Made by a program: the position numbers and the translations under genes
Notes under the pieces: model-generated
What the model was told of the DNA's origin: nothing
Seen by the model: the letters and a program-made list of their open reading frames with translations, nothing else
The model's database searches: none
Shown: piece by piece, positions 3,053 through 59,169 of the stretch
How the letters are laid out: each line of letters starts with the position of its first letter
Position numbering within the stretch: position 1 is the stretch's first letter
Assembly: GCA_937899245.1 (NCBI GenBank)
Contig: CALDKB010000049.1
Span: forward strand, 133,101 to 197,100
Length of the DNA: 64,000 nucleotides
Origin: an uncultured Bacteroidales bacterium
GTDB taxonomy: Bacteria > Bacteroidota > Bacteroidia > Bacteroidales > ML635J-15
Direction: 5' to 3'

Positions 3053-3871
3053 ATGGACAATAACAACTTAACCGTCAACGCATTGTGGATAGGCAAGTAC
3101 CTGTCGGCATGTGAGTTGTTGACCATAAAATCGTTCTTGAATAATGGACATCGGTTTGTCCTTTGGACATACGACGAAATAAAAACCATGCTTCCTGAAG
3201 GTGTGGAACTTCATGATGCTGCGGAAATTATTCCTAGAGAAAAAGTATTCTGCTATAAGTATAGGAATCAATTTGGCCATGGCAAAGGCAGTTATGCTGG
3301 ATTCAGCGATATTTTTAGGTATAAATTGCTGTATTTGTATGGCGGTTGGTGGACAGATATGGACGTAACTTGCCTAAAACCAATGGATTTTGAAGATGAG
3401 TATGTGTTTCGTACACATCATTCGTTGCCTTTGGTAGGTAATATTATGAAATGTCCAAAGGGGGCTGAACTCATGAAGGCTTGCTGGGAAGAGGCAGAAC
3501 AAAAAATTGACGAAAATAATAGGGATTGGCATTTGCCGATAAATATATTGGTTGACAATGTCAATAGGTTCGGGCTGGGTAACTTCATAAAGTCTTACTC
3601 GAATCCTGATTCATGGAATGTAGTACGAAAGCTCTTGAAGGGAAAAACGGAGGTTCCCGACGAATGGCATGTGATACATTGGATAAACGAGGAGTGGAGG
3701 CGCAATAAAATCGACCGGTATTATTTTCTGAAGAAATCGTTTTTTTCAAAATTGGCAGAAAGGAATGGCGTTGCTATTGGTCATCCAAATTTTTTGAAAT
3801 CAATTTCGGTCCGCATTAAACTTTCGTTGGCATGGCATAGCTACCGCGTTAGTGTTGGAAACCGAAACTGA
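3053..3871 (+). CDS. Putative glycosyltransferase with DXD motif (GT32 / sugar-binding-region family-like)
   Basis: 272-aa ORF starting 2 nt after the clpC stop. It shows LWIGKxL...FSDIFRYKLLYLYGGWWTDMDV, the pattern typical of DXD-containing alpha-glycosyltransferases. The family assignment is from memory only. Confidence 0.55.
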   Translation: MDNNNLTVNALWIGKYLSACELLTIKSFLNNGHRFVLWTYDEIKTMLPEGVELHDAAEIIPREKVFCYKYRNQFGHGKGSYAGFSDIFRYKLLYLYGGWWTDMDVTCLKPMDFEDEYVFRTHHSLPLVGNIMKCPKGAELMKACWEEAEQKIDENNRDWHLPINILVDNVNRFGLGNFIKSYSNPDSWNVVRKLLKGKTEVPDEWHVIHWINEEWRRNKIDRYYFLKKSFFSKLAERNGVAIGHPNFLKSISVRIKLSLAWHSYRVSVGNRN

Positions 3872-3899
3872 TTTCAAAAATTGTCAGTATAATCTTTCG

Positions 3900-4766
3900 T
3901 TAAATTCGAGGATCATTTGGGCCGCTAATGTCTTTAAGTTTTTTGATGGCCTTGTATTTGGCCTGATAAACTTGTTGCTCGGTCATGTTTTCCTCTTCGG
4001 CAATATCTCTAATTGACATTTCTTCAGCATCATAGCCAAAAGTGTGTTTCAGTACATTGCGGCTCTTTTCGTCTATTTCAGGCGAATAAAGTGCAAAGTC
4101 GATTGTGTCCCTGTAGTGAGTAGTCGTGAAGTTTTCGTATGGATCACTACCGTCTGAAATGGTATCGCCAATGCAGTATCCGCTTTCCGAATCAATTAAG
4201 GTGTCGATAGATACCGTTGTCGTGCTGTCGAAAGTACTTGTAACGACATATTCTGGAAGTCCAAGTTCTTCTGCCAGTTCAAAAGTTGTGGGATTTCGCT
4301 TGTGTTTGTGTGCGAACCTATTGGCTGCTTTCATAATCTTCTTTTTCTCGTTTATGACATTTGCAGGAATTCGTATGGTTCTGCCATACTTGTTTAGTTC
4401 GTCCATGATTGCCTGGTGAATCCAGTATGTAGCAAAGGAGATGAACTTGAAGCCTCTTTTTTCGTCAAACTTATTTGCAGCAGTTATAAGGCCAATGTTA
4501 CCTGCTTCTATCAAATCAAGAAGGTCAAGACCGCATTTTTGGTAAGACTTTGCTACAGAGATGACATAACGAAGATTTGAGTTCACTAATTCCACAAGGG
4601 CTTTGGGGTCGTTTTGCCTGATTCTATTAGCCAGCTCAACTTCTTGAGCTTGGGTTAGAAGTTTGTAGTTTGAAATTTGACGCATGTAAATGTTTAGATT
4701 TGCGTCGGTGCGATCGGTAATCGACTTACTGATAGTAAAATCTTTCATAGACTTAATTTTTTTCAT
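3900..4766 (-). CDS. Sigma-70 family RNA polymerase sigma factor, divergent paralog of the adjacent rpoD
   Basis: Full region 1.2-2-3-4 architecture: RYVISVAKSYQ, GNIGLITAANKFDEKRGFKFISFATYWIHQAI, and a C-terminal HTH IRDIAEEENMTEQQVYQAKYKAIKKLK. Alignment with rpoD suggests the start may instead be the ATG at 4748. Confidence 0.8.
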   Translation of the reverse strand: MKKIKSMKDFTISKSITDRTDANLNIYMRQISNYKLLTQAQEVELANRIRQNDPKALVELVNSNLRYVISVAKSYQKCGLDLLDLIEAGNIGLITAANKFDEKRGFKFISFATYWIHQAIMDELNKYGRTIRIPANVINEKKKIMKAANRFAHKHKRNPTTFELAEELGLPEYVVTSTFDSTTTVSIDTLIDSESGYCIGDTISDGSDPYENFTTTHYRDTIDFALYSPEIDEKSRNVLKHTFGYDAEEMSIRDIAEEENMTEQQVYQAKYKAIKKLKDISGPNDPRI

Positions 4767-32296: not shown

Positions 32297-34759
32297 CTAT
32301 TTCAAGAACCCATATTCGTAAACCTTCGGCTCGATTTTCTTGGCGAGGGATTTCAGTGTTAGTCGCAGATTTGCATTTAGTTCGTTGTATTTTTCGTCGG
32401 TGCTAGTGCTGTTCATCTTGCCCTTGTCGTTGCGACCCTGGAAATATTCGCGGATGTCGTAGAGTGAAGCGTTGGGATTGGCATCGGGTTGTGAATGATA
32501 ATATTTCCATAATTCGCGACCGGCATCGAAAACCGCTTGCGCCTCAGCCGAAAATACCATCGGCTCGGTTGGAACGAACGACTCCGTTTCGCTTGCAAAT
32601 AACTCTGTGTTAGTGTCTTGCGCCTCACTTCTACACTTTCCACGCATAAAGTCGGTCATAAAGTGCGACTCGAATTTCTCCTTCGCTTCCACCTCGCTTT
32701 CGGTAAACGGAATCCAATGGTTAGTGCCGTATTTTGATTGAATATTATTGTTGAACAATGTCCAGCACAAACAATCAGAATGGAATTCATTGTCTGTTTT
32801 CCAACCATCATTGGGATATAAAAATTGGTCGCGGTCGTTAAGCCAAGTAGCAGAAAAACAATGGACAACAAAACTATATATTGCTATTTGACATAAGTTG
32901 CCTAATGCGACATAAGAACCTCGAGGATTTGTTACATTTGATTTGTCATTGATAATGTAGTTATATTTACTTTGCTGAAAATCACAGCCTCTAACTGTCA
33001 TATAACCAATGAATTTATCTTTCCTTCGCGATTCGATAATCCAATCAGTTATTGTTTTTAATCCATTAGTGTTAAATATTCTTTTTGTGCCTATTTTCGT
33101 CGAGTTATCATCGATTACATCACAAACAATTTCATTAAACGAATCGGATTGATTTAAATTCCATATGAAAAATCCGATTGGGAACGATCCCTTTACGTTA
33201 TCAAACGTATATGATGGAACAATAAATGATTTTTCTAATCTTGCAAGAAAAATCTCTCTAAACTCTTTGAAATTAGATGCTTGTAGAATTTTTAATTTAG
33301 AAAACTCAGCAAGTAAACAATTTGGAATTTCCTTGTAAATGCGAATAAAAAATTGAGCAAAAAGTTCTCGGCCAGCAATGCCAATTTGAGAAAGATACTT
33401 TTCATATGTTTTTTGAACTACTGCGACATCATTTTTATGCTCTCCAGTACCAGTTATTTTTTTTACATTACCTGCCTCCGCATACGGCGGATTAATGTAA
33501 ATCACTAATTTTCTTCGCTTTGTATCGTCAGCAATTATCTTTTGCAATTCGTCGGGAAGCTTCGAAAAAGCGTCGTTTAGAAAATCGAACTGAAACACGT
33601 GAGATTCAAGCAGATTGGCGCCATTCTTAATTCGTTCGTGCATAACGTCAACATCCTGCTGGTCGAGAGTCGATGCCCAAATGTTGTACTTGTTTGTCAG
33701 TCCATTTAGCAAATTTCCAGTTCCCGCACAGCAATCCCACACATAATAATCTTCCTGCCAGTTGTCGCCAAGAACGTCGGCAATGTATTGCTGCGACTTT
33801 TCTACCCAAATCTGCGGTGTGAAGAATGCCCCTTTTCTTTCGCGAACGTCCTGTGGTACAAGCAAATCCAAGCGTTCGGTTATGTAGTCCCAATCTTCTT
33901 TTTGTGGTGGTCGCTTGTAGCGCTTCCAGAAATCGGCATATTTTTCAAGCCCATTTTTGCGGAATCCAAATTCGTAGGCAACGTCAAAACCCATGGCGTC
34001 CTTGCGGTTCAGTCGGTATGGCTTGCGAGAATTTGCATTGAAGGTAACATAAAAATCATCATAAACCGATTTGTCATCGCTGATGTCGGCAGTTCCGTTG
34101 TCATCAACATTCAATTCGGCAATGAAAAAGTCACGGTCGTAGATGCTGTAGGTCTTTTTCAGCAGGTCCCAGTTGGTGTCGATGAAAGGCATTATTTCGC
34201 TACGCCACTTCTGATAAATGAAAATGAAGTTGTTTCTGTCGATTTGCGTTGAGAGGAGATTTGAGTTAATGTCGAGATTGAAGTTGTTTTTAATAAAACT
34301 CTGTAACTCAAATTTATGCGTATCGAAATAATACGTAAATATTTTGTTTTGATTAATGGAATTTCGTACAGTTTCTATGCTTTTTGCATCTACGGCCGAC
34401 GGAGTTTGCGTCCAGTTGAAATCGTTTACGTTGAAGACAGGCAGAACGTAATGATACTCGACGAAAGCTATTTTTTCGGTATCGAAGCAGCCGACGAATC
34501 GTGGCGGAATCATGTTTTTGGCATCCTGGCGAATAGTAATCAGCAGTTGTGCCAGCATTTTGTAGATATCGGTTGGTTGCTGCTTTGCTTCCGCCCAGAG
34601 CAAATATTCGTCATCGAATTGAATTTCAGACTGCTTACGCAGAATTTTAACGGCAAAATCTATACGTCCAATAATATTGGTGCAGTCGAATTTTGGAAAC
34701 CAGTCGGCAGCGACTTTCAGTTTCAGCGATTCCTCGCGGATGTTGGTATCGTAGGCCAT
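32297..34759 (-). CDS. Single-polypeptide type IIG-like restriction-modification enzyme: N-terminal PD-(D/E)xK-like region, gamma-class N6-adenine DNA methyltransferase, C-terminal putative recognition domain
   Basis: N-terminus GRIDFAV...x22...LLWAEAKQ (a D...ExK pattern). MTase motifs in gamma order: KGAFFTPQIW (X), VWDCCAGTGNLL (I), LVIYINPPYAEAG (IV). About 280 further aa have no recognised catalytic motif. No separate R or S gene is adjacent. Confidence 0.68.
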   Translation of the reverse strand: MAYDTNIREESLKLKVAADWFPKFDCTNIIGRIDFAVKILRKQSEIQFDDEYLLWAEAKQQPTDIYKMLAQLLITIRQDAKNMIPPRFVGCFDTEKIAFVEYHYVLPVFNVNDFNWTQTPSAVDAKSIETVRNSINQNKIFTYYFDTHKFELQSFIKNNFNLDINSNLLSTQIDRNNFIFIYQKWRSEIMPFIDTNWDLLKKTYSIYDRDFFIAELNVDDNGTADISDDKSVYDDFYVTFNANSRKPYRLNRKDAMGFDVAYEFGFRKNGLEKYADFWKRYKRPPQKEDWDYITERLDLLVPQDVRERKGAFFTPQIWVEKSQQYIADVLGDNWQEDYYVWDCCAGTGNLLNGLTNKYNIWASTLDQQDVDVMHERIKNGANLLESHVFQFDFLNDAFSKLPDELQKIIADDTKRRKLVIYINPPYAEAGNVKKITGTGEHKNDVAVVQKTYEKYLSQIGIAGRELFAQFFIRIYKEIPNCLLAEFSKLKILQASNFKEFREIFLARLEKSFIVPSYTFDNVKGSFPIGFFIWNLNQSDSFNEIVCDVIDDNSTKIGTKRIFNTNGLKTITDWIIESRRKDKFIGYMTVRGCDFQQSKYNYIINDKSNVTNPRGSYVALGNLCQIAIYSFVVHCFSATWLNDRDQFLYPNDGWKTDNEFHSDCLCWTLFNNNIQSKYGTNHWIPFTESEVEAKEKFESHFMTDFMRGKCRSEAQDTNTELFASETESFVPTEPMVFSAEAQAVFDAGRELWKYYHSQPDANPNASLYDIREYFQGRNDKGKMNSTSTDEKYNELNANLRLTLKSLAKKIEPKVYEYGFLK

Positions 34760-34807
34760 AGTCCGATGGTATTAGTTTCGCTATCAGACACTTGGCAACC
34801 GGAAATA

Positions 34808-35080
34808 AAAAAGGCGCGGCCTCTTCTACTCACATTCACGGGAAGCCTGAGAAGAAACCCGCTGCTCCCAATAGATTCAGCTCACGCCTATGCGCGAGCA
34901 TCAACAAATATTGAGTGCAATGCGGTCACTCAGACCACCGTTAGATTATTCCGATTCTCAAGAAATCGTTTCTCAGGCTTTTTCTTGAAATGCTTTTCGC
35001 CGGAGCGTCGAGCACGAATGTGAATAATAGCTAATGCGTTATTTTATAATATTTTACGTTCTAAACATTTTGTTTAAATG
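34808..35080 (-). ncRNA. Candidate structured 5' leader or small RNA upstream of the type IIG-like gene (class unknown)
   Basis: The region contains nested complementary segments, an inner hairpin that favours the minus strand, a weak terminator-like hairpin and a promoter box. Nested segments: 34830-34837 pairs with 35016-35023 (8 bp) and encloses 34843-34853 pairing with 34970-34980 (11 bp). The inner 8-bp hairpin at 34880-34899 has G-U on the minus strand but A-C on the plus strand. The terminator-like hairpin at 34807-34825 has a U6 tail only in the minus sense. A TACATTTG box lies at 35087-35094. The ends are approximate. Confidence 0.35.
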
Positions 35081-35086
35081 TTAATG

Positions 35087-35094
35087 CAAATGTA
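35087..35094 (-). promoter_or_regulatory. -7 promoter box TACATTTG (minus strand) upstream of the candidate leader RNA and type IIG-like gene
   Basis: Exact TAnnTTTG match on the minus strand, about 330 nt upstream of ATG 34759. Confidence 0.4.
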
Positions 35095-35159
35095 TATAAA
35101 AAATGATGGTTGGCAAAATCTCCCTTATGAAAAAGATACAGATTGTTATGAATAAGGAG

Positions 35160-35226
35160 ATTCCGGACAGTTGAGCATTACAACGCTCCCCGTGCCGTAT
35201 CGCGTGTATGCTCTAACTTCCGGAAT
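35160..35226. repeat. 67-nt imperfect inverted repeat (long hairpin) in the divergent intergenic region
   Basis: ATTCCGGA (35160-35167) pairs with TCCGGAAT (35219-35226), and GAGCAT (35173-35178) with ATGCTC (35208-35213). An inner ACGC/GCGT pair is also present. The interior is GC-rich. Confidence 0.5.
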
Positions 35227-35289
35227 GACGGTGCGCTGTGTTTTCTTGATTGTCTTAAAAACATTATTTTCAAACACGTAAAAAAGCAG

Positions 35290-35297
35290 TAATTTTG
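35290..35297 (+). promoter_or_regulatory. -7 promoter box TAATTTTG upstream of the DMT transporter gene
   Basis: Exact TAnnTTTG match 26 nt upstream of ATG 35323. Confidence 0.5.
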
Positions 35298-35322
35298 CAC
35301 CCGCATTTTTAAGCACAGCAAA

Positions 35323-36198
35323 ATGGCAAATAAAAAAGTATTTGGAACGATTTGTGGGATCTTGGCTGCAATTTTCTACGGCACAAATCCTCTTGGTGCT
35401 TTAAAACTATATGAGCAAGGCATGAACACTAATTCGGTGTTGTTCTTCCGTTTCGGCTTGGCGTGGTTGATTGTTGCCATAATTATGCTTTTCCGCAAGG
35501 AGAAAATTCGTGTCACCAAGCGCGAATTTGGTGTGCTTACAATGCTCGGACTGCTTTTTATTGCGTCATCATTAACACTTTACCTCAGTTTTCACTATAT
35601 GGCCGCAGGCGTGGCGTCGACAATACTTTTCACATACCCTATTATGACCGCCGTTATCATGGCTTTGTTTTTCAAGGAGAAAGCATCGTTCAGGACAATT
35701 CTTGCGATTGTAATTTCTCTTGCCGGTGTCGTCTTGCTTTATTGGAGTGATAACGGAGGAACACTCAGTACGTTAGGTGTAATTCTTGTTCTTGTTTCTG
35801 CACTTACATACGCACTTTATATTGTTGTCGTAAATCGGTTTCCTGTGGAGATGTCATCGTTCAAAATGAACTTTTACATTATCTTCTACTGTGCAATCGG
35901 GATGCTTCTGTTTGGACTTGTTTCGGGAAACGAACTGATAGTTCCGCAAAACGCAACAAGTTGGTTTTATGTTAGTTGGCTCGCTGTTGTTCCAGCAACA
36001 CTTTCGCTTGTTCTTATGGTTTATGCATCGAAATATGTAGGCGCAACGCCTACCGCAATACTTGGCGCATTGGAACCGATGACGGCAGTTTTGATTGGTA
36101 TTTTCGTTTTCAACGAGTCGTTCACCTTGCAGTTGGCGTTAGGTATCGTGCTGATATTGTCGGCGGTGATAATGATTTCCGTTGGAAAAAAGAAATAG
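35323..36198 (+). CDS. DMT-superfamily (EamA-like) transporter
   Basis: 291 aa with about ten hydrophobic segments arranged as two EamA-like halves. Confidence 0.85.
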   Translation: MANKKVFGTICGILAAIFYGTNPLGALKLYEQGMNTNSVLFFRFGLAWLIVAIIMLFRKEKIRVTKREFGVLTMLGLLFIASSLTLYLSFHYMAAGVASTILFTYPIMTAVIMALFFKEKASFRTILAIVISLAGVVLLYWSDNGGTLSTLGVILVLVSALTYALYIVVVNRFPVEMSSFKMNFYIIFYCAIGMLLFGLVSGNELIVPQNATSWFYVSWLAVVPATLSLVLMVYASKYVGATPTAILGALEPMTAVLIGIFVFNESFTLQLALGIVLILSAVIMISVGKKK

Positions 36199-59094: not shown

Positions 59095-59169
59095 GGGAGT
59101 TTAGCTCAGTTGGTTTAGAGCACCTGCCTTACAAGCAGGGGGTCATAGGTTCGACTCCTATAATTCCCA
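59095..59169 (+). tRNA. tRNA-Val (anticodon TAC)
   Basis: A manual cloverleaf folds correctly. The acceptor is GGGAGTT/AATTCCC, the D arm GCTC...GAGC, and the anticodon stem CCTGC/GCAGG with loop CTTACAA. The T arm is ATAGG-TTCGACT-CCTAT with discriminator A. No CCA is encoded. Confidence 0.95.

Follow-up and report, generated by a model that had tools for sequence, protein, structure and literature searches.

A covarying structured leader RNA upstream of a type IIG/IIL-like restriction-modification gene of rumen and gut Bacteroidales

Restriction enzymes can kill their own host, and the control of the genes that encode them is a long-standing question. The locus described here raises this question for one gene of an uncultured Bacteroidales bacterium. 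In a 64,000-nucleotide stretch of contig CALDKB010000049.1 (the window, to which all positions refer unless a locus label precedes them), a minus-strand gene for an 820-aa type IIG/IIL-like restriction-modification enzyme (32297-34759) is preceded by a divergent intergenic region of 563 bp (34760-35322), within which a first-pass annotation, made from the bare sequence, had flagged positions 34790-35094 as a candidate structured RNA. What is this region, and what might it do for the gene behind it? Our analysis establishes that a structured leader RNA in front of the type IIG/IIL-like gene is real and previously undescribed, and that the element is larger than the flagged span, reaching from a promoter at ~35117 to the ATG at 34759. 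We interpret it as a new cis-acting regulatory 5' leader, riboswitch-like or autoregulatory, of the restriction-modification mRNA, and place the probability of this interpretation at roughly 60%. The fold and its gene context are new, the general kind of element (a structured cis-regulatory 5' leader) is known, and its function is what we infer.

The window was traced to a Logan assembly of run SRR28408250. To collect homologues of the 820-aa protein, we used genome and metagenome collections together with look-ups of exact proteins; 122 loci were scanned, the element being located by a hidden Markov model (HMM) and a covariance model of the region upstream of the gene. This yielded an element of ~280 nt at 30 loci of rumen and gut Bacteroidales, with 22 distinct sequences among them, the closest relatives of the window being metagenome-assembled genomes (MAGs) of rumen/gut Bacteroidales labelled Salinivirgaceae or Bacteroidales. 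All 30 copies lie directly 5' of the same 820-aa gene family, on the strand of the gene and in one orientation, and neither model detected a further copy, whether elsewhere in the window or among the 122 loci. A search of viral contigs with the pattern TAGARAGGN{3,4}GCACCTTTYTWT returned two matches, both due to chance and devoid of the other parts of the motif.

The decisive evidence against a chance origin of the fold comes from nested helices with compensatory changes in the 21 other distinct sequences, an analysis of homologous upstream regions that the first-pass annotation had itself proposed. Both of the long-range pairings it had pointed out are present and covary, namely TCACATTC (34830-34837) with GAATGTGA (35016-35023), which forms the helix designated here P1, and AAGCCTGAGAA (34843-34853) with TTCTCAGGCTT (34970-34980), which pairs at 11 of 11 positions and forms helix P2. 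Since MAFFT on its own aligned the P2 5' arm wrongly across subgroups, we used alignments anchored on invariant flanks as well as model-based ones. In the anchored alignment, P1 is represented by eight sequence variants with 159 of 160 cells paired (99.4%) and compensatory changes in six of its eight pairs, and P2 by seven variants with all 160 cells in Watson-Crick pairs and compensatory changes in five of eight; taken together, 319 of 320 cells are paired, and compensation is seen in 11 of 16 pairs. The observed scores were not reached in any of 500 column shuffles, and sliding the partner arm by 1-3 columns reduced pairing to 13-53%. An independent alignment to the covariance model (R1) gave 95.7% of cells paired vs. 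82.9% in shuffles, and 23 pairs with double changes vs. 9.9 expected (0/500 shuffles), with double changes in 9 of 10 P1 pairs and 9 of 11 P2 pairs. The anchored alignment is the cleaner test, because the R1 alignment is fitted to the structure; the two agree. Within subgroups, covariation is also seen in two of the inner hairpins, P3 and P5.

AT-rich intergenic DNA often contains short inverted repeats (25 pairs occur in 700 bp here), which is the argument for attributing the helices to fortuitous complementarity or to the remnant of a pseudogene or small open reading frame (ORF). Such an origin is refuted by covariation far above the controls together with the ORF checks, and we regard its probability as negligible. 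No conserved ORF exists in the leader, as 7 of 20 sequences contain no ORF at all and the others differ in frame and length, and a leader peptide or small ORF was rejected on the same ground. Long antisense ORFs do run across the leader at several loci (34316-35023 on the plus strand of the window, L110:322-600 and L105:136-492 on the minus strand of theirs), and some of them are called by gene finders. We consider these calls spurious, because the L110 ORF, used as a protein query in order to trace the RNA in other settings, matched itself alone among 5.8 billion proteins.

The strand of the RNA follows from its wobble pairs. Over P1 and two downstream hairpins, T and S (described below), G-U cells outnumber A-C cells by 38 to 9, so that the RNA is assigned to the strand of the gene, and in T alone the count is 18 to 1, from which we conclude that T forms on the sense strand only. 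The predicted minus-strand fold (-99.2 kcal/mol, z = -3.5) was matched in stability by none of 100 shuffles, the plus-strand fold has z = -1.8, and forcing both nested helices costs 1.3 kcal/mol vs. the unconstrained optimum. The minus-strand assignment made at first pass is thereby upheld, and the RNA on this strand is conserved and covarying.

Upstream of the structured part lies a Bacteroidetes-type promoter (35087-35117, minus strand), comprising the -7 box TACATTTG (35094-35087), which had been recognised from the start, and an upstream TTTG/TTGCCA element (35117-35111); a consensus scan also marks 35116-35089 as a promoter. The box recurs in homologues: a TAnnTTT[G/A] sequence is found 64-91 nt upstream of an invariant 5' box of the leader in 15 of 20 distinct leaders examined (TAnnTTTG in nine, a final A in six, no box in five). 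None of the 20 leaders contains such a sequence internally, the segment between hairpin T and the ATG included, so that transcription of the gene has to pass through the element. The first transcribed segment (35031-35086, its start inferred from the promoter) is A-rich, has little structure and is conserved within subgroups only.

These features also bear on the possibility that the repeats act at the level of DNA, either as an invertible, phase-variable promoter (inverton) flanked by inverted repeats or as a protein operator at the palindrome of S. At the DNA level the helices are inverted repeats, the two arms of S show high sequence conservation, and invertons are numerous in Bacteroidales, where some sit 5' of genes at restriction-modification loci (PMC7641763, PMC7672463). 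In contrast to such switches, however, the element was found in a single orientation in 30 of 30 loci, its arms are only 8-11 bp long and nested among at least five helices, the repeats are not identical as DNA because of G-T wobbles, of which P1 has 9, T 18 and S 11, the promoter is placed beyond the repeats, and the cassette contains no regulator, invertase or recombinase gene. An inverton was rejected on the grounds of orientation, wobble positions, promoter position and the lack of a recombinase in the cassette, and we hold a DNA-level element of either type to be very improbable.

In sense order, the leader consists of the box CUAUUWUUC, P1, an A-rich linker, P2 (enclosing P3, P4 and P5a/P5b), a short pairing X:X', hairpin T with its U-run, hairpin S and the ATG. 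P1 and P2 are two stacked closing helices, P2 enclosing a four-way junction with P3, P4 and P5, and single-sequence minimum-energy folds gave the same architecture in 8 of the 11 homologues folded. The 5' box (CUAUUAUUC, 35022-35030), with seven of nine positions invariant family-wide, extends P1 outwards; a possible partner is GA(N)UAG, immediately 3' of the P1 3' arm, and this pairing overlaps the base of T by 2-3 nt. The arms of P1 lie at 35016-35026 (core UCACAUUC, 35023-35016) and 34827-34837 (core GAAUGUGA, 34837-34830), the helix extending to 11 nt at 91% complementarity, and those of P2 are AAGCCUGAGAA (34970-34980) on the 5' side and its partner UUCUCAGGCUU (34843-34853) on the 3' side.

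The A-rich linker between P1 and P2 measures 4-10 nt in all homologues; the window copy carries a 32-nt insertion, which in the constrained fold contributes an extra hairpin found in the window only (34990-35015, pairing 35015-35011 with 34994-34990 and 35007-35005 with 35000-34998). A local hairpin that the first-pass annotation had noted around one arm of P2 (34958-34965/34981-34988) is indeed present with 8 of 8 pairs; it depends on the same insertion and is not conserved. The alternative fold or pseudoknot that it had suggested for P2 may exist in another form; a different, conserved pairing brackets the other P2 arm: X (CGGG, 34861-34858) with X' (CCCG, 34842-34839), spanning 34839-34861. 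X:X' has 97.4% of its cells paired, with six G-U cells and, in L105, a single double change (AAGGC/GCCTT), and it was picked by RNAalifold when P2 was misaligned. Judging from these pairing patterns, X:X' could plausibly be a pseudoknot, or a hairpin alternative to P2.

Within the junction, P3 (CGAUUU ... GAAUCG, 34952-34968) is conserved in homologues as UUGAUUU...AAGUCGGA, with changes from G-U to Watson-Crick pairs and others. P4 (34922-34938), the second of the inner hairpins seen at first pass, is variable in sequence and length, a hairpin being found here in every homologue even where the sequences cannot be aligned. The long hairpin P5 (34862-34920) is built of P5a (34920-34909/34873-34862) and P5b (34905-34892/34887-34875), the tip of the latter being the 8-bp hairpin reported earlier (34880-34887/34892-34899), including its one G-U pair on the minus strand. 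P5b has a conserved GGUGYG and several G-U pairs, and P5a differs in sequence between near-identical relatives and is still complementary (CAATCATC/GATGATTG, TAATTGCC/GGCAATTA, CACTGTC/GGCAGTG). The invariant unpaired or junction stretches of the leader are CUAUUWUUC, GGAAAC, UCGGA, GGUGYG, CGGG and CYCG. The 5' untranslated region (UTR) thus contains a covarying structured domain such as a riboswitch sensor would require.

Between this domain and the gene stand two further hairpins. Hairpin T (GAAGAGGC-CGC-GCCUUUUU) with its U-rich run (34803-34826) is intrinsic-terminator-like and corresponds to the weak hairpin described before at 34808-34826, which has U6 behind it only when read in the minus sense, the ATG lying ~45 nt beyond the U-run. 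It is found in 22 of 22 sequences in the family form AGAAAGG-loop-CCUUUYU, with conserved stem and CGCA loop. Hairpin S (34760-34791; family consensus GUGAUUGAUAG-loop-CUAUCAAUCAC) is adjacent to the start codon; in homologues it is an 11-bp hairpin of -8 to -17 kcal/mol that ends 2-6 nt before the ATG, with 92.6% of cells paired vs. 23-53% when the partner is slid. Of the layout initially perceived (promoter, structured region, terminator-like hairpin and ATG), the terminator-like hairpin T is conserved, as is S next to the start codon, and the promoter box recurs upstream in most homologues examined.

What kind of enzyme is made from this mRNA? The 820-aa protein had no match in Pfam, NCBIfam, PADLOC or the sequences of the PDB, and a profile search against PDB sequences gave weak Rab GTPase matches only (E ~1e-4), which we treated as spurious. 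More than 8000 homologues of ~820 aa exist, every source-given name among them being "hypothetical protein"; the family is unannotated in current pipelines because no Pfam, NCBIfam or PADLOC model covers it. The family alignment has invariant D34 and E57-A-K59 (a PD-(D/E)XK motif), FTP (313-315), DCxxGTGN (D342-G348) and NPPY (423-426). An AlphaFold model (predicted local distance difference test score, pLDDT, 80.8) found its best Foldseek match in DrdV, a type IIL/IIG enzyme (7lo5, E = 9e-8, ~790 columns), followed by LlaBIII, CamA, M.BseCI and M.TaqI. The protein is thus predicted to join in a single chain a PD-(D/E)XK nuclease at its N-terminus, an N6-adenine methyltransferase of the gamma class and a presumed target-recognition domain (TRD) that varies, as type IIG/IIL enzymes do. 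Because of the invariant motifs and the DrdV-like model, the earlier label "type IIG-like" is justified, and the gene product is predicted to act as a DrdV-like type IIG/IIL restriction-modification enzyme.

Comparison of alleles reveals a mosaic gene: nucleotides 1250-1850 (aa ~415-620) are only 50-69% identical between alleles that are elsewhere 93-100% identical (pairs L105/L114, L106/L107 and L002/L006), a ~600-nt divergence that fits a swapped TRD, and the N-terminal, TRD and C-terminal modules recombine independently of one another. The suggestion that the RNA encodes or tracks the specificity of the enzyme was rejected, as L052 and L105 share TRDs that are 98% identical, with only 48% identity in P4-P5 and 65% in the rest of the leader; the Spearman correlation between TRD and P4-P5 is 0.23.

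At different loci the gene is solitary, placed between differing and unrelated housekeeping genes. Homology between loci extends from the promoter, ~330 nt 5' of the ATG, as far as the stop codon (L001 vs. L003, L002 vs. L006); given these limits, the promoter, leader and gene move as one cassette. Within it, the conservation of the leader often exceeds that of its gene, with nucleotide identities of 96% vs. 63% for L018/L107 and 89.5% vs. 66% for L011/L052. Close homologues without the leader also exist (L109, L122, L037, L008, L050), where the gene has a plain short 5' UTR or lies behind another gene, and the leader is therefore a clade-specific regulatory add-on and not an obligate cofactor. 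Two of these leaderless copies are found in mobile- or defence-like neighbourhoods, L122 with a Bro-N protein upstream and a deaminase downstream (L122:331-1182, 3752-4165) and L109 with RhuM and SocA/Panacea genes nearby (L109:5487-7566). Distant Prevotella paralogues (46-50% identity) start 3 nt behind GmrSD-like or T5orf172/DUF4268 genes (L094:247-1497, L033:3074-3997, upstream in L013, contigs CAUTNK01...), which suggests two-gene defence modules. The covariance model and HMM did not find the element in these distant paralogues, whose conserved upstream DNA is coding (GmrSD-like and T5orf172/DUF4268). Some MAGs have 4-5 paralogues, and tandem copies occur in L013.

On the other side of the intergenic region, the window contains a plus-strand EamA transporter gene (35323-36198), in whose upstream region, outside the leader, a 19-nt inverted repeat (35160-35178/35208-35226) is 79% complementary.

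An RNA that travels with a single protein family invites comparison with RNA partners of toxic enzymes, as in type III toxin-antitoxin (ToxIN) and AbiF/RCd22 systems. Under such a model, most transcripts would stop at T, giving a stable ~250-nt RNA that binds and restrains the enzyme, occasional read-through would make the enzyme, and a shut-off of transcription (e.g., upon phage infection) would let the RNA decay and release the nuclease. The layout of promoter, P1-P5, T with U-run (terminator-like by sequence) and gene is that of these loci, which share with ours a structured RNA encoded just 5' of, and co-oriented with, a toxic anti-phage gene, a terminator-like element separating the two (10.1101/2025.04.15.648962). 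The RNA is moreover linked to a single protein family, together with which it travels as a cassette, the leader is more constrained than the protein, and the lack of any antiterminator found here fits constitutive partial termination. Nevertheless, the leader has no sequence or model similarity to AbiF/RCd22 or ToxIN RNAs, no processing sites and no tandem repeats (direct repeats do not exceed chance), and the protein is a predicted DNA nuclease-methyltransferase with a DrdV-like fold and no PADLOC match, not an endoribonuclease or Abi_2 toxin. Close homologues do without the RNA, its variable parts track no protein module (L052/L105), and S, an extra start-codon hairpin absent from those systems, is conserved beyond T and hence part of the mRNA. 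On balance, we consider an RNA partner of the enzyme unlikely.

A simpler explanation would dispense with sensing altogether and treat the leader as a constitutive structure that stabilises or processes the mRNA, or sets transcription and translation at a fixed low level. T and S alone would reduce expression, no alternative structure has strong covariation, and P4 and P5a are constrained in structure only, all of which is in keeping with a passive role. The long invariant unpaired and junction stretches speak against it, as does a four-way junction of ~200 nt that is better conserved than the coding sequence and seems too elaborate for a fixed damper; leaderless paralogues, for their part, presumably express from a plain promoter. 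We accordingly give a constitutive leader a low probability.

To what extent does the element resemble regulatory RNAs that are already known? A gathering-threshold scan of the whole window against Rfam 15 had no match to the leader, its sole match being a tRNA gene (59095-59169, plus strand, 73.2 bits), and permissive scans (E <= 10) of the window copy and of the compact representatives L007 and L001 returned only chance matches (E >= 2.2, 12-18 bits vs. gathering scores of 40-176). The first-pass statement that the RNA belongs to no familiar class thus agrees with the Rfam scan. In the main text of a 224-motif survey, restriction is never mentioned and the two mentions of methyltransferases concern the nhaA-II and sul1 motifs (PMC5737381), and the main text of a human-microbiome survey ties no motif to a restriction or DNA-methyltransferase gene (10.1101/2020.03.31.018887). 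A 270,000-character review of restriction-modification from 2025 never mentions riboswitch, leader, untranslated or attenuation (PMC12707154), and our literature search found neither a description of the motif nor riboswitch-type control of restriction genes.

Restriction-modification genes are known to be controlled by C (controller) proteins, autorepression by methyltransferases and antisense RNAs (PMC3874152, PMC12707154). These mechanisms address the same problem of limiting or timing a self-lethal restriction activity; unlike them, which employ DNA-binding proteins or antisense transcripts, the present locus has a folded leader on the sense strand and no regulator gene. The helix-turn-helix (HTH) controller gene and C-box of a C-protein system are likewise missing, as the leader has no conserved ORF and the gene is solitary. 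The nearest likeness is to orphan riboswitch candidates and other cis-regulatory 5' leaders (Rfam motif classes), with which the element shares a covarying multi-stem junction, invariant junction nucleotides, a possible pseudoknot, downstream terminator-like and start-site hairpins, and a leader better conserved than its gene. It differs from them in lacking an Rfam 15 match, a ligand clue and a clearly mutually exclusive expression platform, and in accompanying one restriction-modification family only, with which it travels. Several gene families sharing one metabolite, as expected for a riboswitch, were not observed, all 30 copies preceding one family. Autoregulatory leaders of ribosomal proteins offer another parallel, being structured 5' leaders dedicated to one protein family that could bind its own product, whereas we see no sign here that a natural RNA substrate is mimicked, the substrate of the protein is DNA and the domain is much larger than is typical of them.

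Returning to the cis-regulatory interpretation, a plausible course of events can be outlined. Transcription would start at the Bacteroidetes-type promoter, ~330 nt 5' of the ATG, after which T may cause partial termination and S may limit initiation, jointly keeping the output of a potentially self-toxic enzyme low. Initiation in Bacteroidetes does not rely on Shine-Dalgarno pairing and needs an open region upstream of the start codon, which is the reason for assigning S this role. A low enzyme concentration would be a sensible goal, because cleavage by DrdV-type enzymes requires the assembly of several enzyme molecules and methylation does not. The P1-P5 domain would serve as the sensor, its state altering read-through and/or access to the start site. 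This state might be set by a bound effector, by extension of P1 through CUAUUWUUC in competition with the base of T, or by a choice between P2 and X:X'. The 5' box is also complementary to the 5' arm of S at 8 of 9 positions, which makes this another candidate switch pairing; none of the three pairings (P1 extension, P2 vs. X:X', 5' box with S) has covariation support so far. As the RNA travels only with this gene, the enzyme itself, acting in autoregulation, is given about the same weight as effector as a small-molecule ligand.

Several observations weigh against this interpretation. We found no conserved antiterminator or anti-sequestor with covariation, and T lies outside P1 save for 2-3 nt, so that it and S might act constitutively. 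Hairpin T is itself weak (6-9 bp, just 2-3 of them G-C, the U-run being partly inside the stem) and fails a terminator scan in the window and in L001, although that of L002 passes, and S is degenerate in the window copy. The gene context offers no clue to a ligand, because the element accompanies one gene family only, and the effective sample is modest, since the 22 sequences fall into ~7 lineages. A more specific proposal, that the leader is a sensor coupling the production or activity of the restriction enzyme to a cellular or infection signal, whether as a metabolite or nucleotide riboswitch or as an RNA that inhibits the enzyme until transcription collapses, we put forward as a tentative possibility.

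Overall, for single-chain type IIG/IIL enzymes, in which nuclease and methylase are joined in one polypeptide, we know of nothing established about how expression is controlled, and a large covarying leader carried in one cassette with the gene points to RNA-based control. The leader provides a well-defined new RNA fold for ligand- and protein-binding screens, and would bring an orphan riboswitch-like class to rumen and gut Bacteroidales, in which, to our knowledge, few regulatory RNAs have been characterised. Should it prove to be a sensor or an enzyme-inhibiting RNA, it would give restriction-modification systems their first described RNA-based switch and would represent a new aptamer or RNA-protein fold.

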